A DNA stretch of 59,812 bases. It comes from Candidatus Staskawiczbacteria bacterium (GTDB lineage Bacteria; Patescibacteriota; Minisyncoccia; Minisyncoccales; Staskawiczbacteraceae). Each line of letters begins with the position of its first letter. Within the stretch, counting starts at the first letter, position 1. Shown here piece after piece: positions 13,155-47,583 of this stretch. The notes beneath the pieces are model-generated. The model did not search any database. It saw only the letters and a list, made by a program, of their open reading frames with translations, and was not told the origin of the DNA. Location of the stretch: contig JBAZYR010000007.1 in assembly GCA_041659225.1 (NCBI GenBank), forward strand, positions 1-59,812. The letters run 5' to 3'. Position numbers and translations under genes: made by a program.

Positions 13155-13200
13155 TAGGTAATTGTAGCTTAATAAAAAAGGAAATTCAAATTTAATGTAT

Positions 13201-13234: not shown

Positions 13235-13766
13235 CTTGGCATGCGATTCGCACGAACTTCCTGTCAGGAAGACACAGTGCGGCGCCGAAAAAGGGCTCGC
13301 ATACCTATACTAGGGCCAGAGATGATCTCTGGCGAGAAAATGTGCTAAAAAGATGGACAGTTGACAGACGGCTTGAGCTGTCGGTTTGAGTGTCGGCGGC
13401 GGGCGTTTTGCCCTGAATCGGACTATGTCGCCGATAGGGTAGCAACGTTGCCCCCAGAATCTCGGAACCACAGCGTGGGACCGGCCCGCGTTCACGCGAA
13501 AGCGCTCCCCGGGCATCGTTGGGCCGTTGGTAACCGTTTTGTGCAACTCTAGAATTGCACAATCATTCGCCTCAGTGACAAACTGGTGGCTCTCCAAGAG
13601 AGTCAGTCTGAAACTACTCAGCTTACATCGCTTGGCACACGATGCATGCTTTCGGTCCGCATAAATAGCGGGTTAGGCGAATACTGTCAACTGTCCAGGA
13701 GATTACTTATCACCAAATATGATAAACAATCTACTGGACAGCTGATATTCTTAAATGAACAACCAC
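13201..13766 (-). ncRNA. Unclassified GC-rich structured RNA or leader (element A) between the ykuK-like gene and alaS
   Basis: GC-rich block in an AT-rich genome, with overlapping ORFs in several frames. Perfect 13-bp closing helix 13696-13684 / 13367-13355. Nested helices 13682-13675 / 13572-13565, CAGACUG/CAGUUUG (G-U valid only on the minus strand), GUGCAA/UUGCAC and CGCG-UGAA-CGCG. Own promoter and terminator. Confidence 0.6.
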
Positions 13767-32104: not shown

Positions 32105-32329
32105 ATGGCAAAAACCTGTACAATTTGCGACAAAACATCCACAATGGTTTGGAAATTGAAAAAACTTCGTGGTAAATACAATCCGACCGTAAAAAGAAGG
32201 AAATATCCAAACCTTCAATGGGTCCTTGTTCCAAAAGATATAAAATCTCCAAAGATGGCCATTCCTTTAAAAGGCAAGCGAGTTTTGGCTTGCACCAAAT
32301 GCATAAAGGCAATGGCAAAGACTAAATAA
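32105..32329 (+). CDS. rpmB: 50S ribosomal protein L28 (Cys-containing form)
   Basis: MAKTCTICDKT ... RGKYNPTVKRRKYPNLQWV ... LACTKCIK. Confidence 0.85.
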   Translation: MAKTCTICDKTSTMVWKLKKLRGKYNPTVKRRKYPNLQWVLVPKDIKSPKMAIPLKGKRVLACTKCIKAMAKTK

Positions 32330-32350
32330 TCTTTACCCCGAGATTATTTA

Positions 32351-32421
32351 CGGGGCATAGTGCAACGGTAGCACGAGTCCATGGGGTGGATTTAGTTCGA
32401 GTTCGAATCTCGATGCCCCGA
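32351..32421 (+). tRNA. tRNA-Pro (anticodon GGG); CCA not encoded
   Basis: Manual cloverleaf: acceptor CGGGGCA/TGCCCCG, D arm GTGC-AACGGTA-GCAC, anticodon arm AGTCC-ATGGGGT-GGATT, T arm TCGAG-TTCGAAT-CTCGA, discriminator A. Confidence 0.85.
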
Positions 32422-32461
32422 CATAGAATGAGTTCTTTCACAAACAAAGAAGGGAGACCTT

Positions 32462-32704
32462 ATGTCTTCATCCAGCTCAATAGAAACTCTTACCGAAATT
32501 GAAGTTGACAACAATACCGGCATACGGGACGTTGTAGATTTTCTGACCGCACTGTCGCCCAGTCAAGGCCACGGAATCATAGTCGTAATTCAGAGAGTAA
32601 TTCCAAGGACAGTACTGCTGGTCGAAGGCGGATTAAGCATCAAAAACGGCTCGAGAGAGCAAATTCCAGACAAACCAACCGCCGGTGATACTGGCGACGA
32701 TTAA
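32462..32704 (+). CDS. Hypothetical acidic 80-aa protein
   Basis: ATG preceded by GAAGGGAGACCTT (Shine-Dalgarno GGGAG). GC-richer than its surroundings. No family recognised. Confidence 0.45.
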   Translation: MSSSSSIETLTEIEVDNNTGIRDVVDFLTALSPSQGHGIIVVIQRVIPRTVLLVEGGLSIKNGSREQIPDKPTAGDTGDD

Positions 32705-32808
32705 CATAGGCTTCCCTCCGGATAGGTAGGCGTGATCAGGAACGCAAACCTTTCGCGACCTACCTATCTATTTATATAGAAACGGCTCGTTTACGAGCCG
32801 ACGAACCC

Positions 32809-32914
32809 GGAGAGGGGGCATGCGCACATCCAGGCCACATGCCCTGGATGAAAATCTTTGTGGTAGAACCAACCCGAACCGAACCACGAGTTTTATTGCC
32901 CCCTCCCCTTTTTT
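32809..32914 (+). ncRNA. Candidate Y-shaped small RNA or elaborate terminator
   Basis: GGAGAGGGGGCA (32809-32820) pairs with UGCCCCCUCCCC (32897-32908) with one A-C mismatch. It encloses hairpins CAUCCAGG-CCACAUGC-CCUGGAUG and GUGGU...ACCAC, and is followed by U6. Confidence 0.3.
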
Positions 32915-32925
32915 ACATTCAAAAA

Positions 32926-32950
32926 CCAGCGAAGGATTCCCCCTCGCTGG
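32926..32950. terminator. Bidirectional terminator between convergent units
   Basis: CCAGCGA ... TCGCTGG stem, flanked by A5 upstream and TTTTGTTTTTT downstream; 10 nt from the stop of the 32960..34651 gene. Confidence 0.65.
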
Positions 32951-32959
32951 TTTTGTTTT

Positions 32960-34651
32960 TTATTTATCAGTCAAATCCTCTATATCCTTAACTTCTTTTA
33001 TAACAGCCTTTTCTGTGGCTTTGAGCGCTTCTTTCAAACTATCACTGATTTTCTTTTCTTTCGCAGTCAAACCAGGCTTGCCATCAAGCTTAGCTATCTC
33101 CTTCTCTATTTTTTCCCGCAAAATTTCAAAAGACTTACGGAAATTTTCCTCGATTTTTTTAGCTTCCTTCTTTATCTTCCGCCTTCTCATAATAAACCGA
33201 CGGCATAGATATGCCAGCAATACTAAAATGCAGAGTATCAAAATTCCCAAGCCGATTAAAACACTGGGACAGCTAAGATTTAACTGGCCGAACTCAAAAA
33301 TACTCTGTGCAGAAACAATTGAAGAATATCTTGAAGTCGGATTGCTTTTTGCACCGCGCTGGTCAATTGCCTCCAGCCAAAACTCGTAAGATCCCTTTCT
33401 TATTCGGTCTTGCCAAATAACCGTAAAGTTTCCCTTCTCGTCAGCGGTTACTTCTTTTGAAGAAATTTTTTCGCTGCCTTTAAGCTGGAGAAAAATCCGG
33501 ACGGTTGATTGGGGATAGCTGGTTCCCTGGACAATAAAAGGATCATTCTCCATAATCTTTTCAGAATAATCGGTAACTACCGGCGCATCGATAGCTGCAA
33601 CTTCAAATTCCGCAGATTCAGCCAAGAAATTGCCTGCTTCGTCCACAGCTTTTACAGAAATTGTGTGTTTTCCCGGATCCATGGCCTGGGTTTTATAGTT
33701 TCCGGCTGGTTCGATATTTTTTACTTCCTGTCCATCGATTTGGACTTCATAGTGATCAATACCGGAAGTTTCATCACTAGATTCAAGAGAAAATTCTGCC
33801 TGCGGATCCGTTAAATCAGAACGTTTAATTTCTTGTATCCGGAGATATTCTGGTTTCTCTGTATCAATCTGGAAAGCAAAATGCGAAACCTCTCCCCAGC
33901 CGCTACTCGTACGTGCTTGCATGTGAAAATACCACTTGCCTTCACCAATATTATCCAATTGTTTTTCTGCCACAGCAGGCTCATAAAGAACGTTTGGCGA
34001 GGAAGAAGCTCCTCTGCTGTAAAGAAGTCTTACGCCGGAAGCGCCGCTAGGCAATGTCCAATTGAATTTAGGGTTTGCATTTGCATACCACTTTGTAGAG
34101 TCAGGATGAGTAGTTGAATAGATGGTAGAAGTAACAGGCGGCTCAGGAGTTTCCGGAGTTTCTGCGCTGGTAGTTAATACATAACTGGCGCCTGTCATAT
34201 TTCTCAATACATTCGTTCCTAAGCCGTCGTTCGACAACACCGACCCGCTGGAGAAAACTACGGATGCCGTGCCGCTGCTTTTAGCCCTGAAGGTAACTGT
34301 CATTATCTTCCCTTTATTCCCGGAAAACCCAGGGTTTAAAACAATTCCTTCAAAGTTAAACGTGCCGCTGCTATTTGAAAATATCGGCTCTTGAACCCAT
34401 AAACTTATGATAGAGCCGCTCTTTGAGATAGAAACCGCTTCTACCTTATTTGAAGGGAAGGTTACCACTCCGGAAATAGCATTTATTGTTTCTGACGGTG
34501 CAGCGACATAAACGCTCATAGAAAAATTCTGGCCCACGGTGAATGACCCGGAAGCCGGGCTAATAGACAAGTCTGCGGCCTGCACCAGAGCTGGGGCAAA
34601 AGCCAAAAGACTTAAAAACAAGACTGACGACAAAATTATTTTTTTCTCCAT
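32960..34651 (-). CDS. Cohesin-like domain surface protein with Ig/FN3-like repeats, C-proximal TM helix and charged cytoplasmic coiled-coil tail
   Basis: Signal peptide. DLSISPASGSFTVGQNFSMSVYV...INAISGVVTFPSNKVEAVSISKSGSII...GKIMTVTFRAKSSGTASVVF. TM helix VLIGLGILILCILVLLAYLC, then a KE-rich tail. Confidence 0.6.
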   Translation of the reverse strand: MEKKIILSSVLFLSLLAFAPALVQAADLSISPASGSFTVGQNFSMSVYVAAPSETINAISGVVTFPSNKVEAVSISKSGSIISLWVQEPIFSNSSGTFNFEGIVLNPGFSGNKGKIMTVTFRAKSSGTASVVFSSGSVLSNDGLGTNVLRNMTGASYVLTTSAETPETPEPPVTSTIYSTTHPDSTKWYANANPKFNWTLPSGASGVRLLYSRGASSSPNVLYEPAVAEKQLDNIGEGKWYFHMQARTSSGWGEVSHFAFQIDTEKPEYLRIQEIKRSDLTDPQAEFSLESSDETSGIDHYEVQIDGQEVKNIEPAGNYKTQAMDPGKHTISVKAVDEAGNFLAESAEFEVAAIDAPVVTDYSEKIMENDPFIVQGTSYPQSTVRIFLQLKGSEKISSKEVTADEKGNFTVIWQDRIRKGSYEFWLEAIDQRGAKSNPTSRYSSIVSAQSIFEFGQLNLSCPSVLIGLGILILCILVLLAYLCRRFIMRRRKIKKEAKKIEENFRKSFEILREKIEKEIAKLDGKPGLTAKEKKISDSLKEALKATEKAVIKEVKDIEDLTDK

Positions 34652-35526
34652 AAAAATCTTGAGAGCGCAACAGCTACGACGCTGCTGACTATTATTAATA
34701 TTATTATAAGATAAACTAAATAGTTTTCATACCACAATAAAGGATTCGGGGCCGGTAGGATTACAATTCTGGCGTTACCGGCCCGATCAACTGCTTTCAG
34801 ATAAACAAAACTCCGCAGTTGCTGGTCTTTCAATAAATACGGGCTTTCTGCATTTTCCCATCCGGTTAAAAAAGATAATAAATCCTGTTTTACTTCGCGA
34901 ACCTGGTAGTAATCAATGCCTGAGTTTTTGTCCTGAGTGTTAAAAGATAAAAACCATTGCCCGTCAAAAATATCCGGGTGCTGGCTAATTTCCGGAATAA
35001 AGGACTCAGGAAGTTCTGTGTCTGCCGGCTCTTCCGGTATTACTTCTTCGGGCGGTCCAGCTGCTATTACTTGGAAATTAAGAGCACTGGGATTTAAAGT
35101 AGCTTCCGTCCCCTGTCCGTCGTTCAATAAAATCTTAGCCTGGTTGATAGCAAAACTCTTTTCTCCTGTGTTTAAAGGGACTAAATAAATTTTCAGAAGC
35201 ACGCCGGTCTTCCCCTGAAAACCGCCGGCCATGATTCCAGACAACGATATCTCTCCGCTATCCTTGGATAGAACTGGCTGTTCTATCCAAAAACTGATTA
35301 CAGAACCTGCTTCATTTATCCTTTTAACAAGGAAGTCTTCTTTCGAATAATTTAATTTTAGATCTATCGCGTTAATATTCTGATCCTCCGTGTCTATGGA
35401 TAAGATCACCTCAGCCGTCTGATTAACGACTAATTGCGGAGGGAACATAATAAATCGGGACGCTCTCGCCTCGCTCGCGTAAGATAGAAGTATTAAACTG
35501 ATGAAAAATACAACGACCTTTTTCAT
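34636..35526 (-). CDS. Cohesin-like domain protein with C-terminal TM anchor
   Basis: Signal peptide. VVNQTAEVILSIDTEDQNINAIDLKLNYSKEDFLVKRINEAGSVIS...GVLLKIYLVPLNTGEKSF. C-terminal LVYLIIILIIVSSVVAVALSRFLWRKK. Overlaps the next gene by 16 nt. Confidence 0.6.
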   Translation of the reverse strand: MKKVVVFFISLILLSYASEARASRFIMFPPQLVVNQTAEVILSIDTEDQNINAIDLKLNYSKEDFLVKRINEAGSVISFWIEQPVLSKDSGEISLSGIMAGGFQGKTGVLLKIYLVPLNTGEKSFAINQAKILLNDGQGTEATLNPSALNFQVIAAGPPEEVIPEEPADTELPESFIPEISQHPDIFDGQWFLSFNTQDKNSGIDYYQVREVKQDLLSFLTGWENAESPYLLKDQQLRSFVYLKAVDRAGNARIVILPAPNPLLWYENYLVYLIIILIIVSSVVAVALSRFLWRKK

Positions 35527-35558
35527 TTATTTATCAAATTTATATAATACATATATTT

Positions 35559-36875
35559 CTAGCCGGTCCAGTAATACGCCATTATACTAAAATCAACTAA
35601 ATCAATTTTGTTGTCGCTATTCAGCTTTTCCCGTTCCAAAGCTGCAAACGATTCACTAAGCTGGCGTTTGTACCAAAAGGCGGCTATTGAGAAATCCACA
35701 AGGTTGACTTTGCAATCTCCGTTAAGGTCCGCTTTTGCCGGACACTTTGTTGGAACTTTTGGTGTTGTTTTATTCCCAACCTTAAACCCAACCGAAGGGC
35801 TGAAGGAACTTATTAATCCAGCCACAGCGGTTTTAGATTTTGCTGCATGCTGGCCTAAATCTAAGGGCGAGGTATCAAAATATGAAAGGTAAACGCCGTC
35901 TTTATCAGATTTTGTTTTAACAAAGAACTCTTCCTCGGAATTAATACTGATAGTAACCTCGCCTTCTGGAACGCTTTGGCCCAAAACTACTATGTTGTCC
36001 CCTCTCTTAACTTCTGTTTTATCAACGTCGATAGTCGGAGAAAGAAAAATTCCGGTAATGTTAGCCACAGAACCCTGAGTAACTGCTACTTGGAAGTTAA
36101 AGGAAGAAGATTTTCTGTTCTGGCTATCTTCACTGAAAACTGAAAAAAGATAATTACCGGAAGAAAGGCTGTTCAGGCTAACGCTGAAATTCGCATCCAA
36201 CCCGGCAATTGTAGTAATGCTAATTTGCCCATCCTTCAAAACCGTAACCTTACTCATAGGATAAGCCCTACCGGAGAAAACAACTTGGGTTACGGGGGGC
36301 GGAGGGGGCCCTCCGCCGCCGCCACCGCCACCGCCGCCACCGGGACATTGCCCGCAATCGGCAGAACAGGTATTACAAGCCTCTCCGTTGTTACAAATTC
36401 CGTCCCCGCAGTAAGGAGCAACTGTTCTGGTGCTCAACGGCCGCCAATCTGTTACAACCTTACAACTTAGGCAGGTTGAGGAATTAAAATTAATAACTCC
36501 TGTGATATCTCCGTTGGCCGTACCGGTAAATTCGCCCGAGGAATTTATAACAACACCAGCAAAGTTTATCCATCCGGTATTTTCTCCCCAAGCGTAGCCG
36601 GAAAGCGTACCTTCGTTATTATTCTTCACTCCGCTTTGCGTCGGGTTTAAATTGATCCAGCCGTAATTAGCTGACCAAATATAGCCCGTTAGCGCAGCAT
36701 CAGTTACGTGAACGTTGCCCACTGTAGTCCCGAAATTTAACCAAGCGATATCTTCCGACCAAGCGTATTTATACGTCGAATTTATTGTGCCGTCAGAAGT
36801 CGATGCAAATACAATTGCAGATGAGCCGAGTGTTCCGACAATGATAAATAGAATTAGTAATAATTTATTTTTCAC
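35559..36875 (-). CDS. Secreted protein with Trp-rich GWINF repeats, Cys-rich module, Gly11-Pro5 linker, Ig-like region and C-terminal dockerin-like EF-hand pair
   Basis: YAWSEDIAWLNF / ANYGWINL / ENTGWINF. YCGDGICNNGEACNTCSADCGQC. PGGGGGGGGGGGPPPPP. DLNGDCKVNLVDFSIAAFWY and NSDNKIDLVDFSIMAYYW. Confidence 0.65.
   Translation of the reverse strand: MKNKLLLILFIIVGTLGSSAIVFASTSDGTINSTYKYAWSEDIAWLNFGTTVGNVHVTDAALTGYIWSANYGWINLNPTQSGVKNNNEGTLSGYAWGENTGWINFAGVVINSSGEFTGTANGDITGVINFNSSTCLSCKVVTDWRPLSTRTVAPYCGDGICNNGEACNTCSADCGQCPGGGGGGGGGGGPPPPPVTQVVFSGRAYPMSKVTVLKDGQISITTIAGLDANFSVSLNSLSSGNYLFSVFSEDSQNRKSSSFNFQVAVTQGSVANITGIFLSPTIDVDKTEVKRGDNIVVLGQSVPEGEVTISINSEEEFFVKTKSDKDGVYLSYFDTSPLDLGQHAAKSKTAVAGLISSFSPSVGFKVGNKTTPKVPTKCPAKADLNGDCKVNLVDFSIAAFWYKRQLSESFAALEREKLNSDNKIDLVDFSIMAYYWTG
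36294..36353 (-). repeat. GC-rich simple-sequence tract encoding the Gly11-Pro5 linker
   Basis: ggggggcggagggggccctccgccgccgccaccgccaccgccgccaccggg. Confidence 0.9.
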
Positions 36876-36905
36876 TGAATAATCGTTCTCTAATTTGATT
36901 GACTG

Positions 36906-39224
36906 TTATTTCGCTGCCGGCGCCTCCTCAACCGGTGCGGGTATTTCCTGCCCTATTCCTTCCAATGGTTTGTTCCCTGATTTAAGATTATTCAAAACTT
37001 TCTTTATGGTCTCATCGGCTGGATTCAGATCCACCACTTTTTGGATGCTGTCAATTGCTTTCGCATTTTGCCCAAGCTCGTAATAGGTTAAGCCCAAAAA
37101 GTATAGGGCATTGGAATAATTCGGCGATATTCCGACTGCCCTCTCGAATTCCCCTTGGGCGCCTTGATAGTCTTTGCTCTGGTAGTAAAGCAAGCCTAGC
37201 TGGAGAGCCAAGCCGACATCTTGCGGTGCATAATTTCTAGTATCTTCTAAGCGACTAATCGCTTCATCTGTCTTCCCAGCCGCCTGAGATACCATGGCCA
37301 TTTGGAAACGCGCTGGCGCGTAATCAGACTTTAACAAAATAGCTTTGCTCAACTGTTCTTCAGCTTGTGAAAGCAAGCTGGCTTTCTCTCCTGCTTTATC
37401 CTGAGGCAAAGAAAGCGCTTGATTCAAAAATACTATTCCTTTTTGCGTTGGATAATATGGATTATTCGGTGCCAATTCCATAGCAGAATCATAGGCTTTT
37501 ATTGCCCATGACTCTGAATCAGGAACTAAGCCGATTAAATTCTGATAAATCAATCCTCTCACCGCCCAATTAGAGTCGTTCTTTGAATTTATATCAGTTG
37601 CTATTTTCGAAGCGTTTATCGAGTTCGCTACCAGCATTTGAATATTTTTGCCTCTTTCCTCCTGAGAATTATCTGTTCTCTGAGCCTCCTGTTTAACCTT
37701 GGAAAGATACAACTGAGATAATTGCCTAAAGTAAAGATCAGAGGATGGATTCAAACTTGCTGCTTTTTCAATATTTTTAATTCCTTCGTCGCCATTGCCT
37801 TTCTGCAGCTGCGTTAATCCGGCGGTGTAATTAATTTCGGCAATATATTTTTGGCCCGTTAAAATCAAAAGCCCTAAGCCGAATATGAAACAAAGGGTGA
37901 AAATGAAAGTCACGCTCAAAGCCATCACAGAAGACGATTCCAATGGATATTGCTTTCTCTCCTTGGAGGTTAGGGCGATAAACACGGCAATCAGAAAGAA
38001 ATACAGGAAATCTAAGACAAACGCGCTGTTGTAAAGGAAGTATCCGACGCTTAGAACCATAAAAGCAGCGATAACTCCAAGAGTTACATTCCAATGCTCA
38101 TCATTGTTTTTCTTAGCTAAGAAGACTTTAATTCCTTGGAAAATAGTAATAAACATTAAGAATAAAAAAGAAAGCGCGCCTAGGATCCCCGTCGTTCCTA
38201 AAACAGTTAAAAACTTTGAGCCCGCCCCTCCAAATTTTACGTTCCAAAACATGCTGGCGTTAAAATCAGCTCCTATATACTTAGAAAAATCATAAACAAA
38301 TGTTCCTGGACCGGAACCGAAGATCGGACTGGCTTTCAAAGTTTGTAAAACAATATCCAGACTTGCCTTCTGACTTAATGAAAATTCAGCAGGAGCCGAA
38401 GACAAAATATTTACTGCCGGCCTTAAAACAACAAAGAATAAGGAAAGGGCCAAAAAGAACATCGGCAAGATTAACCAGCGGCTATCAAAAGAACTCTTTT
38501 TCTGCATTCCGAAAATTATGATCAAGGCTGACCCTACTATCACCAGCCACCATAACACCAAAAAGTTAAGCGCCACGATCAAAACCAATGTGAATATCAC
38601 AGCCCAAAAAAGAATCGCTGCCAATGCTTTCCTTTTCGTGAGCAAAGAAATAACGAGCGGTAAAAATACGACAGCTAGCAATCCCAATGCTCCGGCTGCG
38701 CCGATTGTATTGAACGCTGTAGCTTTCGTAAAAGCCAACGGGAGTAAGAATAAACCGAAAATTTGCAAACATCCGAATATCAGGGCCAGAAATCCCGAGA
38801 AGGCTAGGATTAAAACTAAATTATATATTTCTTTTTTGTTGAATATGTTGCTTACCAGGAAATAGAAAACAATCAGCCCTATCAGTCCTACTAGACTTTC
38901 AGAAACAACCTGCGGCCAACCCCAGAAACTCCCGTATCTCCATAAAGAAAATATAGTTGAAAGAAGGGAAAAAACAAAAAACACAACCACAGCGATATGT
39001 ATTTTGCTCAAATTTATGCTTATTTGTTTGGAAATAACGGACTTAAGCATCCACGCAAAAAGAGACAAGGCAGAAAGCAATAAAAGCAATGTTTGTTTAT
39101 TAAAATCAAGTATGTCAGACGTCCATGGAAGGAAAAAGATTGGAAGTAACGCAACCAGGACGTAAATGCTATACTTGGCGACATAATCACAAATTCTGGC
39201 TATGAGAGAGTTCTCTTTTGGCAT
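36906..39224 (-). CDS. O-antigen ligase/Wzy_C-family polytopic membrane protein fused to C-terminal TPR repeats
   Basis: At least 10 TM helices. Wzy_C-like loop ending SPIFGSGPGTFVYDF. C-terminal ~290 aa of TPR-like repeats (YFRQLSQLYL, ALYFLGLTYYELGQNAKAIDSIQKVVDLNP). Confidence 0.7.
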   Translation of the reverse strand: MPKENSLIARICDYVAKYSIYVLVALLPIFFLPWTSDILDFNKQTLLLLLSALSLFAWMLKSVISKQISINLSKIHIAVVVFFVFSLLSTIFSLWRYGSFWGWPQVVSESLVGLIGLIVFYFLVSNIFNKKEIYNLVLILAFSGFLALIFGCLQIFGLFLLPLAFTKATAFNTIGAAGALGLLAVVFLPLVISLLTKRKALAAILFWAVIFTLVLIVALNFLVLWWLVIVGSALIIIFGMQKKSSFDSRWLILPMFFLALSLFFVVLRPAVNILSSAPAEFSLSQKASLDIVLQTLKASPIFGSGPGTFVYDFSKYIGADFNASMFWNVKFGGAGSKFLTVLGTTGILGALSFLFLMFITIFQGIKVFLAKKNNDEHWNVTLGVIAAFMVLSVGYFLYNSAFVLDFLYFFLIAVFIALTSKERKQYPLESSSVMALSVTFIFTLCFIFGLGLLILTGQKYIAEINYTAGLTQLQKGNGDEGIKNIEKAASLNPSSDLYFRQLSQLYLSKVKQEAQRTDNSQEERGKNIQMLVANSINASKIATDINSKNDSNWAVRGLIYQNLIGLVPDSESWAIKAYDSAMELAPNNPYYPTQKGIVFLNQALSLPQDKAGEKASLLSQAEEQLSKAILLKSDYAPARFQMAMVSQAAGKTDEAISRLEDTRNYAPQDVGLALQLGLLYYQSKDYQGAQGEFERAVGISPNYSNALYFLGLTYYELGQNAKAIDSIQKVVDLNPADETIKKVLNNLKSGNKPLEGIGQEIPAPVEEAPAAK

Positions 39225-39242
39225 GGTTTAATTATATTAATT

Positions 39243-42200
39243 TTAAAACTTAATTAATTTTCCAATTTCTTCTTTCAAATTGCTTATGATATTCAATACT
39301 CCTTGTAATAATCCCGACGTTGCCGAGCCGGCTGCTTCCTTTATCGTCGGAGTAGATTCTTTAATAAAACTCATAATCTTCGGAAACAGTCCTGCTGCTG
39401 CCGATTCCTTAACAAACTCCGCTGATTCTTCCACTGCTTTTAAGGCTTTGTCCAGCAAACCTGTGGGCTCTGCTTCTTCCACAGGTGGCTCCTCTGCGGG
39501 CACTTCTTCCTGCACTTGGATCTCCTCTAGCGGTGGCGTCTCTTCCAGGACCTCTGGTTCCGGCTCTACCGGCTGAGATAGTTCTTCAACCTGCACTTGT
39601 AAATCCTCAACATCTTCTTTAATGTTCTCAACTTTTTTATCAATTGATTTATTCAACTCGCTCTTTAATTCCTGTTTAACTTCTTGCTTTATCTCTTCGA
39701 CTGAACCCTCTGGTAAAACCTCTGGTTGGACCTCTGGCGTAATTTCTATATCTGGTTCAGTCTCAATCTCTGGAGCCGGTTCCGGGGTTGGCTCAATCAC
39801 AACCTCTTCTATCGCGTCGCAAGCCCCTTTAGTTTTTTGCCACTCGCCATTTTCAATCCATGTACAGTATGCGTCTCCATTAGCAGAGTCAATCATTTCC
39901 ATTTTCTCAAGACGAGCAGTCCTGGCGGTAAACTTATCTGCAACCACCTCCTTTAATGTGGCCACCCCGTTAACAACTGCCATGCCTAAATCCATCAAAG
40001 ACTGGCCTATCGCTTGACTTGAAACTCCTGAAACTTGTCCGCCGCCGACATAACCAGTGCCGCCTATTTGTATTGAACCTCCGCCTAAAATATTAATCTT
40101 CTGGTCCAGCTCTTTCACCGCTTCAAGCAACACCGCCGTAAATTGGGAATAATTTATTCCGAGATCACCGTTCGGATTTTCCACAACCAACTCTGGGAAT
40201 TGCTGCTGCATCTCCTCGGCAATCATACCTATTTGAACTTGGCCGGGGGCGGTAATCGGGTTAGTCTCCAAATATTTATCGTCGTACGAATAATACACAC
40301 CCCGCAAGGCCATAACCTTGTCGATAACCGAACCCAAGCCCGCTATATCTTTTTTATTCTTAATATCTGAGGTGGTGCAAGATATGACAATGCCTTTGCT
40401 GACATTCACAGAGGTGCAACCCGTTCCATCTACTCCGGCTGTCGAGCCGGCAAAATAATTGGTGATGTAAGCATTTTTATAAATATGAGTAGTGTCGCCT
40501 AAATCTATGTCGTTCGTAGTTGTGGGCGCTAACTTCCCGTCAACTAGCCCAATTTGAGATGTCCCGTTAAAGGCGAACTTTAATACACCTGTTTTATTAT
40601 CTATCCAGCTATCCGTTCCGTTGTGATAAATAGATAAATCTGTGCCGGAGCCAAAATACATCTTTACGTTATCATTCATTATGTTGTCCGCATCCGAGAT
40701 AAAACCGTAAGCGTTTACTGTTCCGGTAAGAGCACCTGTATCTACATTATACACCGCGGGAACAGTGAGATATAGTTGTGCGAGATTAAAATTACCTGCG
40801 TAATCGGTTGTCCTTTCGTTTTGGAGAGTATTTGTTAGTTGAAGATTATAAAATGATTGGGTAGTCGCATCCGCTGTCCACGTAGCTGCGTCTTTTATGG
40901 TATTAAGCGCTTGAATGTTTGTTCCTATGCCATTTATCACATAACCAGAGGGGTCTCCATCATATCCGCCTTGAACTTTCCAAGAGTTAGGGTAATAAAC
41001 ATCAGCTAGGCCATTAGTATAGTGATCTATCGCAACTAAAGAATTTATAAAAGTAGAGTTATCCTCATTAGGATTCCTATAGTCCACCTGTAAGTCTATT
41101 CCTTTACCAATAAAGCTATCGGTAGTTGAGTCCAACCTTACATAAAACGGTATGCCTGCCTGCCCATAGGCAGCAGAGCCAAGATTAAAAGTATTATATG
41201 CATTTACTGTCTGCGCTGTTGTGGAAGCCCACCTCTTAGCAGAGCTGCCGTTGCTATAGACATTGTCGCTGATTGGAGATATTGTACTCGGTGAAAAAAT
41301 CCCGCCAACCGATATATCTCCGGCAGTAGTCAGGTTGCCGCCCCAAAGCTCGCTGGTGACAGTAATCTGAGTTTGTTTTACCCCTATGCGGGTATAATCA
41401 TAATAGGCATAAATATCGCCGCCTCCGCTCACAACATTTCTGCTCATCAAATAGACCTTAAAATCATCTCCGATATAGTTTCCTACATTAGAGGTCATTG
41501 CCTCGTTAACATCTTGGAGCGTTGCTCCGCTTGCATTAGCGCCAATCTGCTCCCAGGAAACAGTATTGTAATTCCAGATGTAGAATGCGAAGGTTTTACT
41601 GCTTGCCCAATAAGCTATGACTTGAGCGTAAATAGCCGAGTAGTATGATTCTGGTACTCCTGTTGGTAGTTGAATTTTAGTTAAAAACCCATGCCAATTG
41701 ACTGATTCAAACAAATATCCCGTCGCATTATCGATAACGATTCCGTCGTTGATTGAAAATTGAGTTAGCTGCCCAGCACCCGTTATTTGAGTCGCTCCGG
41801 TAATCCAGGTCGCTGGCGCTGCAGTAAGATCAGATTCTGTGGCGGAAGACTTAGCATACAAACTCGTGACGCTGGAACCTCTTAAGAAATCATAGTACGT
41901 ATAAGAAGGCGCCGCTGCATCTATTTTATAGGTTGGCGCCTGAAAAGAACCTGTGGTAGTAAATCCTCCTGCGGTTAAAGTAGTACCGTCAAAAGTCAGA
42001 TTGGCATTGTCGCCTATTGTATTAGCTGATGTTGAATAAAGAACTCTAGTTGAAGTCGTGGTCGCAGGATATACGACGGTACTGTTCACCCAGTTCGTTC
42101 CGTCTGATCTTAATAATGTGTTCAATGTTCCTCCGGTTGCAGGATAGGTTGCTGTGGACCAAGCCGGAGCACCCGTTCCTCCGCTCCGAAGAATCTGGCC

Positions 42201-45026
42201 TGACGATCCAGCTGCAAGGTGGCCGTAAGCGGTCGTGCTGGTGGAATAAAGCATCTCCCCGCCGCCGGCAGCCGTAATATTGGCGCCCAAACCGCCCCTT
42301 GAGGCAGCGAGATATTGTTCGGCAGCAACCGTATTAGTCCCTGACCAATAGGCTGCGTAGTTTTCTGTACCGGTTCCGGTAGCTACCGTTCCCGAGGTCG
42401 GCAAAGTTAAGGTTGTATCACCACTTGTTGAAAATGTAAGACTATTCGCCCCTATATTTAATGTTTTACTGTCTGCCCCTGCAGATAAAGAAATCGTATT
42501 ATTAACTGTCAACGTTTTACCGTCGGCAATAGTAAGTGTTGCACCCGTAGCAGGAGCTGTAATAGCCACCTTGTTTATTGAGGTGGCAGTTGCAACTCCT
42601 AATACCGGTGTTATCAAAGTCGGTGAGGTACCGAATACCAGCAGCCCGGAACCTGTTTCGTCGAATATAACTGTACTTAGTCCTTCAGAAGTTGTTGAGG
42701 CAAACTCACTTAATCTATTAGCAGTGAGAGCAACAGTTCCTGAAACGCCGGGAAAGGTCCATACCTGTGAAGAGCCGACGAGCGAAGCCATTGTGATTGT
42801 TCCGGTATATGTTCCATCTGAATCTAAAACAATCTGATTTGTGCTGGCAGTAAACTTTCCCGTGCCGAATGTACCGCTACCCGTAGTAAGCAAATTTCCA
42901 TCCTGAAAGTCAAAGTTTTGACTAGTGTCGATAGCTAGCGCTGTTGTGTTGTTTGTTATAAAATATAGTGCGTGATTCGTTTGTGTCCCAAAAATACCGA
43001 TCGTATCCTGTGATTGTTGAATTACTGAAACGGTATTTGTATCATCTACGGTGGCAATCGTTGGATTGGCGGCATTTTCAACTAATATATTTTTACTAAA
43101 ACTAAAACTTGTAACTCCGCTCGTTGATCCGATTATTACTGAGTTAAGGGTGCTTTCAAAATCAAAGGTTAAGTTCGCGTTATTTCCAGCGGTCTTAAGT
43201 CCTGTCAAAGTAAGGATTCCGTTCGTCGCGGTGGCAGAAACACCAGTCGAAGAACCAAAATCCACTATCCCTATCACTCCCGTTTGAGAAACATACATAT
43301 TTCCGCTAAAATATCCCGCCCAATTGGTGGTAGCGTCCGAAGCATATGCAAAAATACCATAGTTTGTATCAGCCGTGCCACCCGCGTTAAACCATCCTCC
43401 GTAATGGCTAGTTTCTCCAGTTGTTCCAATATCTCCGCCAGAGGTTCCCCTTATCCCTATCGCTGATTCTTGAACAGTGGATAGGGTTGCAGGAGCACCT
43501 ATAACGGTGAATGCTAAGCCATAAGGGTTGAATATAGTATCTCCGTCACCTGTAAAAGTTACGCCAGATGCGTCGACATTAGAATAATACCCTGATGGAT
43601 AATAGGTGGTATCCGAACCGTCACCTACCGCGCCGACTACATTATCTAAATCTAATAAAACGTGGTATCCAAATGTATTATAGGCCTGAAGACTAGCGGC
43701 AATTGGAGCTGTCGAAGTATAACTTAACTTATATCCATAGTTATTTGATAATATCGAAGAAACCGACGAGGTTACGTTAACCGACGTTGAAGTAGTATTG
43801 TTTAATATACTTGCTAGGCCAAATGTACCAGTGCCCGTAGTGGTGAGGTCGAACGAGCCGGATTTATCACCGGTAAGCAAAGTTTGATCGTCGCCGTTGA
43901 GCCAAGCACCCGAAAGAGAGGTTAATAAAGTAAGGTCGCCGCTTGCTAAAATGGAGGAACCATTAATTGATTTTATATTCGTTCCCGAAACCAATGTCGG
44001 CTGGACGGCTATGTCTCCGCTCCCCAAAAGTGTGGTTGAATTAACTGTTTTAATATTAGTACCACTAACCAATGCCGCTTGTTTCGCAGTAAAGGTATTA
44101 TAATCTGTCTTACTCAATAATCCCGCAGTGACGTCTGTCGCTGAAGCCATAGGAATATTAAGAGTATGGGTGGTAGTCGCCGAACCCCAGGCAGGTTCGG
44201 TGCCGCTAGTTCCAATAGCAAAAGTTTGCGAAGCACCAGTCAGACCGTTAAGACTCGTGATTGCCGCAGTAAGATAGGTCGAAGTGTCCCAACTCATTAC
44301 GCCGGCATCACTTGATTTCATAAAACCACTCAATCCCGTACCCGGATATGCAGTAGGCAGCGTATAGGTCAAATCTATGGACTGATCCCCGCCCTGAAGA
44401 ATTGAGTATTTTATTGGGGTATCGCCACTCTCTAAAATCCGTAAACCTATTGTGCTAATATTTTGCGAACCTAAGTTTAACCCTGCCGTAGCTCCGGTAT
44501 ATGGCACATAAGTTGACGATGCGTCTGCTGTTGCAAGGTAAGTACCCGTATCAAAACTTAGAACCCCGGCGTTAGAAGACTTTAAAAATCCGCTCGAAGC
44601 CGGGAAAGCGGAGGGCAAAGTAAAAATCGCGCTACTAGAAATTGCATCAGGTGACTTAAAACCGACGTAATTAGTACCGTCAGCTGCCAATTCTAGAAAC
44701 CTTACCTCCCCTGTTTGACCGGTAGAAGTTCCGAATGGAGATAAAACTATTGCTGCTTGTAAATTTAATCCAGAAAGTGCGGTGATGTCGGTATTGACTC
44801 CAGAAATTGCCGGAGTTGTTACGGTACAATTACTAGAAAGCGGAGCACAACTTGGATTCAATGTTGCACCTGGAGCATATGGGCTATCCGGCGGCGTAGC
44901 GAAAGCATAAAGAGCGAAAGAAAAAACTCCGGCAATAACAAACCCGTTGAAGATGGAATTTAAAACGCCTCGGTTTATCGGAATCTTTCTATTTGCGTTT
45001 CTTTTTGATAGCCTTTTTACTGGCAT
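39243..45026 (-). CDS. Giant (1927 aa) Ser/Thr/Gly-rich tail-fibre-like surface protein with a peptidase S74 (intramolecular chaperone autocleavage) domain and an acidic Pro/Glu-rich C-terminal region
   Basis: N-terminal TM/signal. Phage-fibre-type repeats SGTNIKTVNSTTLLGSGDIA / SGTNIKSINGSSILASGDL. S74 signature TSDIKNKKDIAGL...ALRGVYYSYD...IGMIAEEMQQQFPELV...INYSQFTAVLLEAVKEL (Ser codon 40370-40368). Confidence 0.8.
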   Translation of the reverse strand: MPVKRLSKRNANRKIPINRGVLNSIFNGFVIAGVFSFALYAFATPPDSPYAPGATLNPSCAPLSSNCTVTTPAISGVNTDITALSGLNLQAAIVLSPFGTSTGQTGEVRFLELAADGTNYVGFKSPDAISSSAIFTLPSAFPASSGFLKSSNAGVLSFDTGTYLATADASSTYVPYTGATAGLNLGSQNISTIGLRILESGDTPIKYSILQGGDQSIDLTYTLPTAYPGTGLSGFMKSSDAGVMSWDTSTYLTAAITSLNGLTGASQTFAIGTSGTEPAWGSATTTHTLNIPMASATDVTAGLLSKTDYNTFTAKQAALVSGTNIKTVNSTTLLGSGDIAVQPTLVSGTNIKSINGSSILASGDLTLLTSLSGAWLNGDDQTLLTGDKSGSFDLTTTGTGTFGLASILNNTTSTSVNVTSSVSSILSNNYGYKLSYTSTAPIAASLQAYNTFGYHVLLDLDNVVGAVGDGSDTTYYPSGYYSNVDASGVTFTGDGDTIFNPYGLAFTVIGAPATLSTVQESAIGIRGTSGGDIGTTGETSHYGGWFNAGGTADTNYGIFAYASDATTNWAGYFSGNMYVSQTGVIGIVDFGSSTGVSATATNGILTLTGLKTAGNNANLTFDFESTLNSVIIGSTSGVTSFSFSKNILVENAANPTIATVDDTNTVSVIQQSQDTIGIFGTQTNHALYFITNNTTALAIDTSQNFDFQDGNLLTTGSGTFGTGKFTASTNQIVLDSDGTYTGTITMASLVGSSQVWTFPGVSGTVALTANRLSEFASTTSEGLSTVIFDETGSGLLVFGTSPTLITPVLGVATATSINKVAITAPATGATLTIADGKTLTVNNTISLSAGADSKTLNIGANSLTFSTSGDTTLTLPTSGTVATGTGTENYAAYWSGTNTVAAEQYLAASRGGLGANITAAGGGEMLYSTSTTAYGHLAAGSSGQILRSGGTGAPAWSTATYPATGGTLNTLLRSDGTNWVNSTVVYPATTTSTRVLYSTSANTIGDNANLTFDGTTLTAGGFTTTGSFQAPTYKIDAAAPSYTYYDFLRGSSVTSLYAKSSATESDLTAAPATWITGATQITGAGQLTQFSINDGIVIDNATGYLFESVNWHGFLTKIQLPTGVPESYYSAIYAQVIAYWASSKTFAFYIWNYNTVSWEQIGANASGATLQDVNEAMTSNVGNYIGDDFKVYLMSRNVVSGGGDIYAYYDYTRIGVKQTQITVTSELWGGNLTTAGDISVGGIFSPSTISPISDNVYSNGSSAKRWASTTAQTVNAYNTFNLGSAAYGQAGIPFYVRLDSTTDSFIGKGIDLQVDYRNPNEDNSTFINSLVAIDHYTNGLADVYYPNSWKVQGGYDGDPSGYVINGIGTNIQALNTIKDAATWTADATTQSFYNLQLTNTLQNERTTDYAGNFNLAQLYLTVPAVYNVDTGALTGTVNAYGFISDADNIMNDNVKMYFGSGTDLSIYHNGTDSWIDNKTGVLKFAFNGTSQIGLVDGKLAPTTTNDIDLGDTTHIYKNAYITNYFAGSTAGVDGTGCTSVNVSKGIVISCTTSDIKNKKDIAGLGSVIDKVMALRGVYYSYDDKYLETNPITAPGQVQIGMIAEEMQQQFPELVVENPNGDLGINYSQFTAVLLEAVKELDQKINILGGGSIQIGGTGYVGGGQVSGVSSQAIGQSLMDLGMAVVNGVATLKEVVADKFTARTARLEKMEMIDSANGDAYCTWIENGEWQKTKGACDAIEEVVIEPTPEPAPEIETEPDIEITPEVQPEVLPEGSVEEIKQEVKQELKSELNKSIDKKVENIKEDVEDLQVQVEELSQPVEPEPEVLEETPPLEEIQVQEEVPAEEPPVEEAEPTGLLDKALKAVEESAEFVKESAAAGLFPKIMSFIKESTPTIKEAAGSATSGLLQGVLNIISNLKEEIGKLIKF

Positions 45027-45173
45027 TTTCTAGGGAATTTATTGGTGTATATAAAATGCTTTCGGGAACTTATTCTCTCCTTCCTTTGCATTCATATATT
45101 TTAACACAAATTTAATCCGTCAACTATCTGTGGATAACTCTTTTTCCATCTCTGTTTAGCTTAACCGAGAAAT

Positions 45174-45199
45174 AAAAAGGCCTAAGATGCACTCAGGCC
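45174..45199 (-). terminator. Intrinsic terminator after the PEP-CTERM gene
   Basis: Minus strand: GGCCU-GAGUGCAUCUU-AGGCC followed by UUUUUAUUU. Confidence 0.5.
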
Positions 45200-45215
45200 A
45201 TAACAGACGAATGTT

Positions 45216-46193
45216 TTACTTTTTGCGGTGAAGAAGAAGGATCCCGCCAAAGGCAAGGATACATATGGTTGTGGGTTCAGGAATCGTATAGATAAAACCT
45301 TGCTCACTGCTGACAGCAGCAACATTAAAACCAAACGTTCTTGGTTGGAATGTACCGACAAGGGTATTGCCGGATATTCCATACACGACAGTAGCGCTTG
45401 CGTTTGGTGCGTCGATAGTGACCCACGTGGCGGCAGCGCTTGCGTTTGGTGGACCAGCAATAGCTTGGGCTGAACCTGTAATGTTGTAAATAAATCCGTG
45501 CATTATGTTGTCAGCGTCTACATAGCCACCGACAATATTATCGCCCTCGATGCTCCATGGAGTAGTACTGTGTAACATAGAATCGGGTATGCTGAAGTTA
45601 ACCCAGGTTTCATCTGCGATATTGTAAATGAAGCCGTACTGCCGAGCAAGAGAATCAGTGTAACGACCGACGATTCGGTTTCCAGAGACTCCCCGGGGGT
45701 TTACCTTAGTCAACCCGACCATATTGAGGGGGGTAAATAGTGAAGTCGCCAAATTGTAGACAAAAGCACCATTGCCGCCTTGATAGCCACCGACAATATT
45801 ATCGCCGTCGATAGCATTTATCCAGGTAGTCGTATCGTTCATATCAAGCGTGGTCCAAGTTGAGCTTCCAATATTGTAGAGAAGACCGTGGGAGATACCT
45901 TGATTATCTTGATAAGTACCGACAATTCGGTCGCCCGAAACGCCAGTTAAAATCGTGTCAATCGCGCCTGGCTTATCGAGCGTGAGCCAGGTCTCAGTAG
46001 TTGAGTTATACACAAAACCATGGTCATAAGGGTACGAAGCGGCCGTCATATAGAAACCGACGACATTGTCACCATCTACGCAACGCGGGTGCGTACTTGA
46101 TGCCTCAGGCACACTTAGAGTGGTCCAATCGGCCACTGCATAATTCCCGCCAAAAAGTGCGACCACCGCACAAATTACAGCTACCTTCTTCAT
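45216..46193 (-). CDS. HAF-type repeat protein with C-terminal PEP-CTERM sorting signal
   Basis: Signal peptide. Repeated G(D/N).IVG.Y.......HGF(I/L)YN units. C-terminus IPEPTTICILAFGGILLLHRKK (PEP motif, TM helix, basic tail). Confidence 0.75.
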   Translation of the reverse strand: MKKVAVICAVVALFGGNYAVADWTTLSVPEASSTHPRCVDGDNVVGFYMTAASYPYDHGFVYNSTTETWLTLDKPGAIDTILTGVSGDRIVGTYQDNQGISHGLLYNIGSSTWTTLDMNDTTTWINAIDGDNIVGGYQGGNGAFVYNLATSLFTPLNMVGLTKVNPRGVSGNRIVGRYTDSLARQYGFIYNIADETWVNFSIPDSMLHSTTPWSIEGDNIVGGYVDADNIMHGFIYNITGSAQAIAGPPNASAAATWVTIDAPNASATVVYGISGNTLVGTFQPRTFGFNVAAVSSEQGFIYTIPEPTTICILAFGGILLLHRKK

Positions 46194-46509: not shown

Positions 46510-47583
46510 CTATAAACCTAGGGCTTGGACTAATTGTTTTATTAAAGAAACAACAACAGGAGGCGGCATCAAACTGTTCGAGGCAACTCCCTCGTCGTCT
46601 AAAACCTGCCAGGGTTTTTCTATCGTCTCCACTTTATTCTCAGCCTCGTTATACGTGTATTCATATCCTGGAGTAATCTCATAATCATCCGTAGCCTCCT
46701 GTACTTTCTCTACGGGTATAGAATTTCTCAGGAATATCTTCGGGATGCCCTGCAAAGAAAGCGCTTGTCGGATTAAAATTTCGTCCTTTTCTAATCTATC
46801 TTTTATGGGCGCGATTCCTAATTCATCCCCTTCTTTCGTAACCATCCTTGAACCGTTGCAGGCGGGATTATCGCAAAGAAGATAAAACTTATTGTCTTTC
46901 TTATCAAATTCAACTGTCTTTGTCGTTAAAAGCTTCAAGTTCCTAGATGTTTGGCAGACCGGGCAGATAACTCGGAACTTTACCCTTTCGTCAATTACTG
47001 AAGTGGGAACATCAATTGAAACAAAAACATCTGGATCCTGCCTGTAATTAATAAGATCCCGAAAGAATAAAGAATACGATATTTGGTCTAAATCCCTTGG
47101 GAAGCCGTCTATGAAGATGGCTTTCCTGCCCAATTTCGCTATTTCCCTTTTCGCTAACACTAAAATCAATTCGGTCGGCAGAAGAAACTTCGTACTTCGG
47201 TTCTCCAAAGATTTTAATATATCATCCAAGGGAATGAATCCGCGATAGTTATCCTTGAGGAAGGAAACTAATTCTTGTTTCTTGGCCTCATCTTTTTTAA
47301 TATCGTCAAAAGACCTTATCATGTCTCCGATTGAAAAGTGCGCAATTCTGTCTGGAGCAACAACCTCTTTTAACATTTTAGAATAAGTTCCTTTGCCTGA
47401 AGATTTCTTCCCCAGAAGATAGGCGATGAAAGTATTTTCTTTCAAGTATTCCCGCAGTTTTTGTATTTCAGGCCCTGCTTTATATTCAAAATATGCCTGT
47501 CTTTGATTGAAATCAGTTAAATCAAACTTTTTACTAGAATCCTCTGATTTTGTTTTAAAAATTGGAAAATCAATTCCTTTCAT
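46510..47583 (-). CDS. Adenylate kinase-family paralogue with N- and C-terminal extensions and a Cys4 LID
   Basis: GKKSSGKGTYSKML P-loop, IDGFPRDLDQ, and CPVCQ...CDNPAC in the LID-equivalent position. Confidence 0.6.
   Translation of the reverse strand: MKGIDFPIFKTKSEDSSKKFDLTDFNQRQAYFEYKAGPEIQKLREYLKENTFIAYLLGKKSSGKGTYSKMLKEVVAPDRIAHFSIGDMIRSFDDIKKDEAKKQELVSFLKDNYRGFIPLDDILKSLENRSTKFLLPTELILVLAKREIAKLGRKAIFIDGFPRDLDQISYSLFFRDLINYRQDPDVFVSIDVPTSVIDERVKFRVICPVCQTSRNLKLLTTKTVEFDKKDNKFYLLCDNPACNGSRMVTKEGDELGIAPIKDRLEKDEILIRQALSLQGIPKIFLRNSIPVEKVQEATDDYEITPGYEYTYNEAENKVETIEKPWQVLDDEGVASNSLMPPPVVVSLIKQLVQALGL

Follow-up and report, generated by a model that had tools for sequence, protein, structure and literature searches.

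Little is known, Saccharibacteria apart, about the ways in which ultra-small, host-dependent Patescibacteria attach to and interact with their hosts. A run of envelope-protein genes in one of them raises the question which of these genes belong together and what they might build. The genes lie in a stretch of 59,812 nucleotides (nt) from Candidatus Staskawiczbacteria bacterium (contig JBAZYR010000007.1 of assembly GCA_041659225.1), which we call the window. They are five consecutive open reading frames (ORFs) on the minus strand, named here G1 to G5, which run from 45026 to 32960 in the ORF listing of the window. A sequence-only reading of this DNA had taken them for a single surface module, made of a giant fibre, a polytopic membrane protein, a dockerin protein and two cohesin-like anchors. 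Comparison across genomes divides the five genes in another way: G3, G4 and G5 are a conserved cassette, whereas the five-gene block is not a conserved unit.

We scanned the G3-family alignment over one genome per GTDB species and took the 80 best loci with flanks of 10 kilobases (kb), in which gene order was established by tblastn with the window proteins. A G3 relative is encoded in at least 375 species genomes. The loci belong to many candidate phyla of the Parcubacteria type, among them Nomura-, Wolfe-, Staskawicz-, Taylor-, Portnoy-, Magasanik-, Uhr-, Falkow-, Buchanan- and Veblenbacteria, and they include Candidatus Microsyncoccus archaeolyticus, an archaeal parasite from an enrichment culture. 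G3, G4 and G5 are adjacent and co-directional in 77 of the 80 loci, that is, in all 77 that can be tested, as the contig of the remaining three ends within or just after G3. The median gap between G3 and G4 is 21 nt. G4 precedes G5 in 68 of the 77 loci; in the others G5 comes first or the two are separated by a third paralog. Independent gene calls in another contig (L081/L082) gave the same layout. In the 60 kb of the window, custom hidden Markov models (HMMs) detected a single dockerin and exactly two cohesins, and this ratio of 1:2 holds in most loci, about 20 of them having 1:3. The cassette is often found near the S12-S7-EF-G genes.

G1 and G2 stand beside the cassette in a single locus of the 80, that of the closest relative (L002). 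Outside L002, similarity to G1 is limited to its Peptidase_S74 region in three loci, and the G2 matches of L044 and L063 are remote and incomplete; G2-family genes mostly reside elsewhere in the genome, away from the cassette. The sequence-only reading had staked its module on a gene neighbourhood conserved in related genomes. Since the block recurs in 1 of 80 loci, this expectation fails for the five genes together, while it holds for the three-gene core. In the literature on dockerins or cohesins in the candidate phyla radiation (CPR), Patescibacteria or Parcubacteria, we found no description of such a cassette. It is widely conserved yet undescribed, and its parts are members of the known cohesin and dockerin families.

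The dockerin is supplied by G3, which is composed of a signal peptide, a variable head, a Cys-rich motif, a poly-Gly/Pro linker, two immunoglobulin (Ig)-like domains and the dockerin itself. The lineage-specific head contains Y-x-W-x(3-5)-GWINF repeats (amino acids (aa) 25-150; nt 36426-36803), the two Ig-like (Big_6) domains span aa 196-370 (nt 35766-36290), and the dockerin occupies the C-terminal aa 376-438 (nt 35562-35750). A type I dockerin consists of a tandem pair of segments, each about 22 residues long and made of a Ca2+-binding loop (D-x-N-x-D-x6-D) and then a helix. The first segment of G3 reads DLNGDCKVNLVD followed by FSIAAFWYKR, a canonical Ca2+ loop and then a helix, and the second reads KLNSDNKIDLVD followed by FSIMAYYWTG. 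Duplicated DxNxDxxxxxxD-helix segments are visible in the G3-family alignment, the two segments of G3 being near-identical.

Single-sequence searches of the PDB with G3, G4 and G5 returned nothing significant, and family profiles were needed. With the G3-family profile, three PDB entries matched at E <= 0.01, all of them dockerins (2y3n_B, 2yik and 5nrm_B; best E 1.6e-4), and the alignment to 2y3n_B covers the entire dockerin. The Pfam family Dockerin_1 (PF00404) was found in 16 of 20 G3 homologs at E <= 1e-3; precomputed PF00404 annotations are present on 34 of the 120 G3 homologs listed, some of which NCBI names dockerin type I repeat-containing protein. Together with the signal peptide, these matches bear out the secreted dockerin protein proposed earlier.

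Within the G3 family, the dockerin is near-invariant and the N-terminal head highly variable. The Ig-Ig-dockerin core is 57-63 % identical across candidate phyla, the corresponding range for G4 and G5 being 30-50 %. In four loci we set the identity of the G3 core against that of EF-G and S7, respectively: 58 % versus 62 and 57 % in L021, 60 % versus 59 and 58 % in L051, 61 % versus 61 and 61 % in L070, and 58 % versus 59 and 52 % in L032. Among the loci, a head of the GWINF type is found only in L001, L002 and L018. In L039 (16530-17648) and L062 (16611-17510), GWINF-repeat heads are also encoded by ORFs of their own, some 6 kb downstream of the cassette, so that this head behaves as a mobile module.

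G4 and G5 are the candidate partners of this dockerin. G4 has a signal peptide, a cohesin (aa 23-154; nt 35065-35460), an acidic and Pro-rich linker, an Ig-like domain (aa 179-257) and a transmembrane helix (aa 266-294; nt 34645-34731). AlphaFold2 models were built on alignments of database matches and reached a predicted local distance difference test (pLDDT) score of 93.4 for G4 and 88.6 for G5. The cohesin fold is a jelly roll, a beta-sandwich of nine strands. When the G4 model was compared with the PDB by Foldseek, the top 50 matches were all cohesins, with a template-modelling (TM) score (target) of up to 0.74 and a root-mean-square deviation (rmsd) of 2.8-3.7 Å. The cohesin-FN3 module 2w1n of Clostridium perfringens came out on top, 2vo8 ranked 3rd and 2xdh of Archaeoglobus 16th, and the TM (target) was 0.73-0.74 for both 2vo8 and 2xdh. 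The G4-family profile also matches the ScaB cohesins of Ruminococcus flavefaciens in the PDB (E 5e-4).

G5 is longer. Its signal peptide and cohesin (aa 26-160; nt 34172-34576) are followed by beta-sandwich domains at aa 177-262, 269-351 and 358-447, with Big_13 above its Pfam cut-off, by a transmembrane helix (aa 461-489; nt 33185-33271) and by a conserved helical cytoplasmic tail (aa 490-563; nt 32963-33184). Whole-chain Foldseek matches of G5 are dominated by tandem Ig/FN3 arrays and give no clean test of the cohesin, 2w1n appearing at rank 24. G5 is paralogous to G4 (BLASTP E 1e-10), and hhalign of G5 with the G4 family gives a probability of 100 % and an E of 3.9e-42 over the cohesin and the Ig-like domain. 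It is thus the G4 model and this alignment that settle the cohesin fold of G5. At E <= 0.01, Pfam Cohesin is found in 11 of 42 members of the G4 family and in 20 of 36 members of the G5 family, and NCBI already names some of these homologs cohesin-containing. The two cohesin-like proteins with C-terminal transmembrane anchors seen in the sequence-only reading thereby hold up. Of the Pfam profiles that it had named as a check, Peptidase_S74 passes in G1; G3, G4 and G5 stay below the cut-offs and Wzy_C gives no match in G2 itself. Because the window proteins score below these cut-offs, the named profiles alone could not settle the dockerin and cohesin assignments, which stand at the level of family and fold.

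Near-invariant cohesin residues in both families, located by strand order in the models, fall on strands 3, 5 and 6 and just past strand 8; examples in G4 are N52, W80, P84, G97, P100-G102 and N135-G139. In solved cohesin-dockerin complexes, strands 3, 5, 6 and the strand 8 region make up the dockerin-binding face, and in the models the near-invariant residues of G4 and G5 would therefore map to the predicted face of this kind. Natural fusions of G4 and G5, about 870-886 aa long, occur in at least seven protein clusters (P0124, P0126, P0128, P0129, P0138, P0147 and P0151). They keep the G4 transmembrane helix, a short basic loop and a segment resembling the G5 signal peptide, which together give a coherent transmembrane hairpin. 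These fusions suggest that the two anchors act side by side. Some G4 or G5 homologs (P0155, P0164, P0235, P0282, P0285, P0301, P0302, P0324 and P0340) have an additional PF13366 (PDDEXK_3) or PF22296/PF05635 (23S rRNA intervening-sequence-protein-like) domain, which suggests insertions of, or read-through into, small mobile ORFs.

G1 is the largest protein of the block, and its description as a tail-fibre-like protein was confirmed. With 33.9 bits, its Peptidase_S74 match (PF13884) exceeds the cut-off of 22; it covers aa 1553-1614 (nt 40185-40370) and profile positions 1-57 of 58. PHROG tail-fibre families match with 1.5e-14 and 1.4e-09, covering aa 1476-1647. Ser1553 and Lys1558, at the very start of the S74 domain, are spaced as in the Ser/Lys dyad of the endosialidase type. 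Proteins of the S74 family carry a C-terminal chaperone that is released by autoproteolysis after trimerisation. By analogy, we infer that G1 forms a tail-fibre-like trimer from which the S74 chaperone would cleave itself off at Ser1553. Some 310 aa follow the S74 match, comprising a coiled coil and a Glu/Pro-rich tail, which is unusual for an S74 domain. Short internal repeats are found at aa 141/229 and aa 318/344. Hydropathy reveals a signal anchor at aa 21-43 (nt 44898-44966) as the sole N-terminal hydrophobic segment, and the custom HMMs found no dockerin in G1. The idea of the fibre as a part plugged into the cohesins through a dockerin does not survive these two observations. With the 1448-aa protein of L002, G1 shares only aa 19-254 and aa 1671-1749, whereas EF-G and S12 of L002 are 78-90 % identical to those of the window.

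G2 is predicted from hydropathy to have about 11-12 hydrophobic segments between aa 14 and 458 (nt 37851-39185), a count in keeping with the 10-12 or so transmembrane segments of Wzy_C proteins, which is a weak and non-specific criterion. Its C-terminal tetratricopeptide repeat (TPR) domain spans roughly aa 570-750 (nt 36975-37517), with TPR families above their Pfam cut-offs. The G2 family numbers 1868 representatives at E <= 1e-30. Of the earlier description as a Wzy_C-TPR protein, the polytopic topology and the TPRs stand, and Wzy_C is weak: G2 itself has no such match at E <= 1 in Pfam, and among 50 full-length homologs, nine match PF04932 at E <= 0.01, the strongest with 8.6e-06. Among the best 60 matches of the G2 profile to PDB sequences there were only TPR proteins and no WaaL/Wzy ligase structure. 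G2 is possibly an O-antigen-ligase-like protein, judging from its homologs, and it may glycosylate surface proteins or help to assemble them.

What takes the place of G1 and G2 in other genomes? An ORF of at least 1000 aa lies within 10 kb upstream of the cassette in 25 of the 43 loci with enough flank, on the same strand in 23 of these 25; downstream, such ORFs occur in 5 of 42 loci (Fisher p = 1e-5, upstream versus downstream). The upstream giants are mostly unrelated to G1 in sequence, and as a group they have a common conserved C-terminal block. Of 26 such giants, three carry Peptidase_S74 and two carry Peptidase_G2; intramolecular-chaperone domains of this type are typical of trimeric phage fibres and spikes. 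No G3-type dockerin was found on any upstream giant with the custom HMMs. The earlier proposal can therefore be kept in a looser form. Just upstream of the cassette, fibre-like giants of diverse sequence are significantly enriched, and G1 and G2 are specific to this lineage, filling a variable slot in which giant surface proteins are often found. This enrichment suggests that the cassette is linked to variable surface functions. The upstream giants of L002 and L018 are related to G1, and both loci have a G3 head of the GWINF type. More generally, the length of G3, and hence its head type, tracks the type of the upstream gene (median about 442 versus about 350 aa, p = 1.7e-5).

The slot has a recurrent gene order in several relatives: a giant of 1400 to more than 2900 aa, sometimes a beta-lactamase-fold protein of about 335 aa, a transmembrane protein of about 137 aa, and the cassette. 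The giant and the small transmembrane protein are found upstream in this order in L016, L024, L035-L037, L052, L056, L063, L067 and L074, and no Pfam family was found for the conserved protein of about 137 aa. In many other loci, the proteins encoded just upstream are instead transmembrane-anchored and about 200-340 aa long, those of about 300-340 aa lying in L015, L019, L023, L031, L038, L047 and others. The one that we scanned, from L023, matches the peptidoglycan-binding domain of WxL-interacting proteins (WxLIP_PGBD) with 22.1 bits, below the cut-off of 27.3.

Taken together, we read the block as a non-cellulosomal plug-and-socket surface complex in which G3 would dock onto G4 and G5, situated downstream of a hypervariable fibre slot, and we give this reading a probability of roughly 0.65. 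G4 and G5 would leave the cytoplasm by way of their signal peptides and stay fixed in the cytoplasmic membrane through the single C-terminal helix, each presenting one N-terminal cohesin on top of an Ig-like stalk. The stalk of G5 would be the longer one, and G5 would in addition reach the cytoplasm with its conserved coiled-coil-like tail. Secreted G3 is predicted from sequence and fold to plug its dockerin, in a Ca2+-dependent manner, into the cohesin of G4, of G5 or of both. Such docking would tether the Ig-Ig stalk of G3 and its lineage-variable head at the cell surface, where either this head or the neighbouring giant protein might supply the lineage-specific function. G1, anchored by its N-terminus, would trimerise by means of its S74 domain, cleave at Ser1553 and expose its distal tip, and G2 might modify or assemble surface components. 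For an organism of this group, a role of the cassette in host attachment is a plausible guess; the conservation of the G3 core and of the G5 tail fits a housekeeping role in the envelope equally well. A bolder version would make the trio a universal membrane socket of Patescibacteria of the Parcubacteria type, in which a near-invariant joint would couple the conserved anchor, with its cytoplasmic coiled-coil tail, to an exchangeable G3 head matched to whatever hypervariable giant fibre or surface complex the upstream genes encode. This would in effect be a modular host-recognition organelle assembled from cellulosome parts, conserved like the translation apparatus and overlooked until now; this we advance only tentatively and would not yet bet on.

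Several observations weigh against the plug-and-socket reading. The score of G3 for Dockerin_1 is 17.9 bits, below the cut-off of 22.9, and its second Ca2+ loop opens with Lys where Asp is canonical. G4 reaches 12.9 bits for Pfam Cohesin (PF00963) against a cut-off of 24.1, and G5 itself has no match to this family at E <= 1. The pairing of G3 with G4 and G5 is drawn from co-occurrence, fold, the gene ratio of 1:2 and the conserved residues on the strands expected to bind. G1, which carries a membrane anchor of its own, needs no socket, and neither G1 nor G2 is a conserved partner of the cassette, so that their link to it may be positional only. The co-variation of G3 head and upstream gene type is confounded by phylogeny, and for the five genes we found neither Shine-Dalgarno motifs nor a confirmed promoter.

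Of the other explanations, the least unlikely takes G3, G4 and G5 for a housekeeping envelope scaffold, connecting the membrane to a wall or S-layer or acting through the cytoplasmic coiled coil of G5, with variable neighbours that are incidental. A G3 core about as conserved as EF-G and S7 in the four loci compared would be unusual for a host-specific adhesin; the conserved G5 tail, the presence of the cassette in at least 375 species and its frequent location near S12-S7-EF-G agree with such a scaffold. Against it stand the significant enrichment of giant genes upstream and the highly variable head of G3, and we found no peptidoglycan-binding or SLH-type wall-binding domain in G3-G5. We regard the housekeeping scaffold as possible, though doubtful. 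The original proposal, that all five genes make one host-attachment apparatus with G4 and G5 as anchors, G3 as an adaptor that holds or braces the G1 fibre and G2 as the glycosylating or assembling factor, draws on the tight packing of the genes between two terminators, on the giant fibre-like genes directly upstream of so many cassettes, on the correlation of G3 head type with upstream gene type, and on the restriction of the GWINF head to L001, L002 and L018, the last two with G1-related giants. It has to contend with the association of G1 and G2 with the cassette in 1 of 80 loci, with G2-family genes that mostly lie elsewhere, with 18 of 43 loci that have enough upstream sequence and no ORF of at least 1000 aa, and with a fibre that has its own anchor and no dockerin. 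A single five-gene apparatus is, in our judgement, unlikely.

Two further explanations can be set aside with more confidence. The S74 chaperone domain and PHROG tail-fibre matches of G1 could point to a prophage remnant, with G1 as phage tail fibre and the rest as accessory genes. We rejected this explanation, since the PHROG matches are confined to aa 1476-1647 of G1, no phage genes were found in the checked flanks (adenylate-kinase-like, metallo-beta-lactamase, M50 peptidase and ribosomal protein genes), and no relatives of G3 were found among 2.9 million viral contigs. The GC content is also unremarkable, without a shift across the block, and the N-terminal anchor of G1 is of a cellular type; a phage origin is very improbable. 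A miniature cellulosome-like scaffold for polysaccharide degradation would account for the presence of cohesin and dockerin modules. It would be a cellulosome with a single dockerin gene lacking a catalytic domain, with one cohesin per anchor and with no carbohydrate-active enzyme (CAZyme) domains found in the five genes, which makes it extremely improbable. The sequence-only reading had dismissed a cellulosome for the same lack of CAZymes, and rightly so.

The coordinates of the five genes, collected in the table below, agree exactly with those given before, including the gaps of 18 nt (G1/G2), 30 nt (G2/G3) and 32 nt (G3/G4) and the overlap of 16 nt between G4 and G5, which are read in different frames. 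Homologs number in the hundreds to thousands for each of G2, G3, G4 and G5, and G1 has a Pfam domain above its curated threshold, which establishes all five as real genes. The terminator reported at 32926-32950 was confirmed as a 10-bp hairpin (32950-32926) with a 5-nt loop and a following TTTTT, which begins 10 nt past the G5 stop. The promoter region placed at 45027-45215 contains a terminator-like hairpin of the preceding gene, and by eye a putative extended -10 element, separated from a TTGACG by a spacer of only 14 nt; no sigma-70 site was reported for 45027-45178 by the scan for consensus elements. None of the five start codons has a Shine-Dalgarno-like motif in the 45 nt that precede it (32960-45071). 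As the upstream gene ends in its own terminator-like hairpin, G1 plausibly opens a new transcription unit, and G1-G5 are probably a co-directional, co-transcribed set of envelope proteins.

Table. Positions of the five genes and of the putative signals at their boundaries (window coordinates)
Feature	Position	Strand	Description
G1	39243-45026	minus	1927 aa, fibre-like
G2	36906-39224	minus	772 aa, polytopic membrane protein with TPRs
G3	35559-36875	minus	438 aa, GTG start, secreted dockerin protein
G4	34636-35526	minus	296 aa, type-I membrane protein, cohesin
G5	32960-34651	minus	563 aa, type-I membrane protein, cohesin
Intrinsic-terminator-like hairpin and T5 run	32921-32950	minus	sequence read directly; shorter version from scan
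Terminator-like hairpin of preceding gene (45216-46193)	45179-45199	minus	from scan, GGCCTGAGTGCATCTTAGGCC then TTTTTATTTC; 5' boundary of unit
Putative promoter elements	45098-45123	minus	TTGACG 45123-45118; extended -10 TGtTAAAAT 45106-45098; read by eye

The block lies in ordinary chromosomal surroundings, flanked on one side by an adenylate-kinase-like gene and a metallo-beta-lactamase-fold gene, and on the other by genes for an M50 peptidase, S12, S7, EF-G and EF-Tu. Directly upstream of G1, the gene at 45216-46193, which has its own terminator, encodes a protein of 325 aa that has a hydrophobic segment at its N-terminus; neither Pfam nor PHROG yielded a family for this protein, and it may be another surface protein. 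The adenylate-kinase-like gene (46510-47583) encodes 357 aa, and its ADK and AAA_17 matches span only about aa 58-219, leaving unexplained extensions. Past the 3' end of the block, the region 32105-32422 holds a 74-aa plus-strand ORF, which we take to be ribosomal protein bL28, followed by a tRNA-Pro(GGG) gene at 32351-32422, both convergent with the cassette. In the approximately 500 nt between this tRNA and the cassette terminator (32423-32920) we found neither a convincing ORF nor an Rfam family; a strong hairpin is present there on the minus strand (32800-32783). In Candidatus Microsyncoccus archaeolyticus PMX.50 (L040, cassette at 9989-13598) the surroundings are as in the window, with a metallo-beta-lactamase gene upstream and M50 peptidase, S12, S7 and EF-G genes downstream. 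A metatranscriptome has been published for Candidatus Microsyncoccus PMX.50 (PMC10936435).

A fixed three-gene unit in hundreds of species, placed beside fast-evolving giant fibre genes, offers a defined protein-protein joint for study in vitro and a marker for variable surface loci in metagenome-assembled genomes. It also points to proteins that could be targeted in the few Paceibacteria in culture (Minisyncoccus, Microsyncoccus). If the plug-and-socket reading is true, cohesin-dockerin biology would reach beyond enzyme scaffolding to a core structure of the envelope in a major bacterial radiation. Should the joint not form, a widely conserved set of envelope genes would remain, and one that deserves a name.

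How does the cassette compare with known systems? A cellulosome is made of a multi-cohesin scaffoldin and of dockerin-bearing carbohydrate-active enzymes, and the cassette departs from it in each respect, with one cohesin per anchor, one dockerin in the window and no CAZyme domains found. Resemblance is closer to the clostridial anchoring scaffoldins: the G4 model superimposes on the OlpA and OlpC cohesins of Clostridium thermocellum (3ul4, 4dh2) with a TM (target) of 0.70-0.73 and an rmsd of about 3 Å, G3 has the duplicated Ca2+-loop/helix dockerin of clostridial type-I pairs, and here too, as read from genes and fold, a surface-anchored cohesin would capture a secreted dockerin protein. In contrast to the clostridial proteins, G4 and G5 use a C-terminal transmembrane helix and not SLH domains or sortase, the only dockerin gene is free of enzymes, and the carrier is a Patescibacterium with a tiny genome rather than a cellulolytic Firmicute.

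G1 has its counterparts in phage tail fibres and endosialidase tailspikes, with which it shares the S74 domain, the spacing of the Ser/Lys dyad, the PHROG tail-fibre matches and the arrangement of a proximal N-terminus and a distal C-terminus. It differs from them by an N-terminus that is a membrane anchor instead of a baseplate adaptor, by the roughly 310 residues past the Pfam match and by a gene context that is cellular, not viral. The WxL/Csc loci of lactobacilli and enterococci, too, comprise several genes for surface proteins, and the transmembrane proteins of about 200-340 aa upstream of the cassette in relatives are reminiscent of them. Unlike in WxL/Csc loci, the single WxLIP_PGBD match is sub-threshold and WxL domains were not seen; in the window, the genes of about 200-340 aa are absent.

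Within Patescibacteria, SEML1_0315 of Southlakia epibionticum (Saccharibacteria) is a dockerin-domain envelope protein essential in co-culture according to transposon sequencing (Tn-seq; PMC10633639). Compared by its description in that report, it resembles G3 in being an envelope protein rich in Ig domains, with no enzymatic part and with a reported dockerin, and differs as a stand-alone gene of 927 aa described without adjacent cohesin genes. For this reason we rejected SEML1_0315 as an instance of the cassette.

The nearest analogues of the cassette are non-cellulosomal pairs, namely the glycoside-hydrolase toxin complexes of C. perfringens (2w1n, 2vo8) and the cohesin of Archaeoglobus fulgidus (2xdh). 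As in 2w1n, the cohesins of G4 and G5 are followed by a module of the FN3/Ig type. The C. perfringens modules are borne by secreted enzymes, whereas those of the cassette are borne by membrane anchors and a non-enzymatic Ig-stalk protein, and, unlike the C. perfringens system, the cassette is a fixed three-gene unit. What these systems would have in common with the cassette is a cohesin-dockerin pair put to a use other than cellulose degradation.

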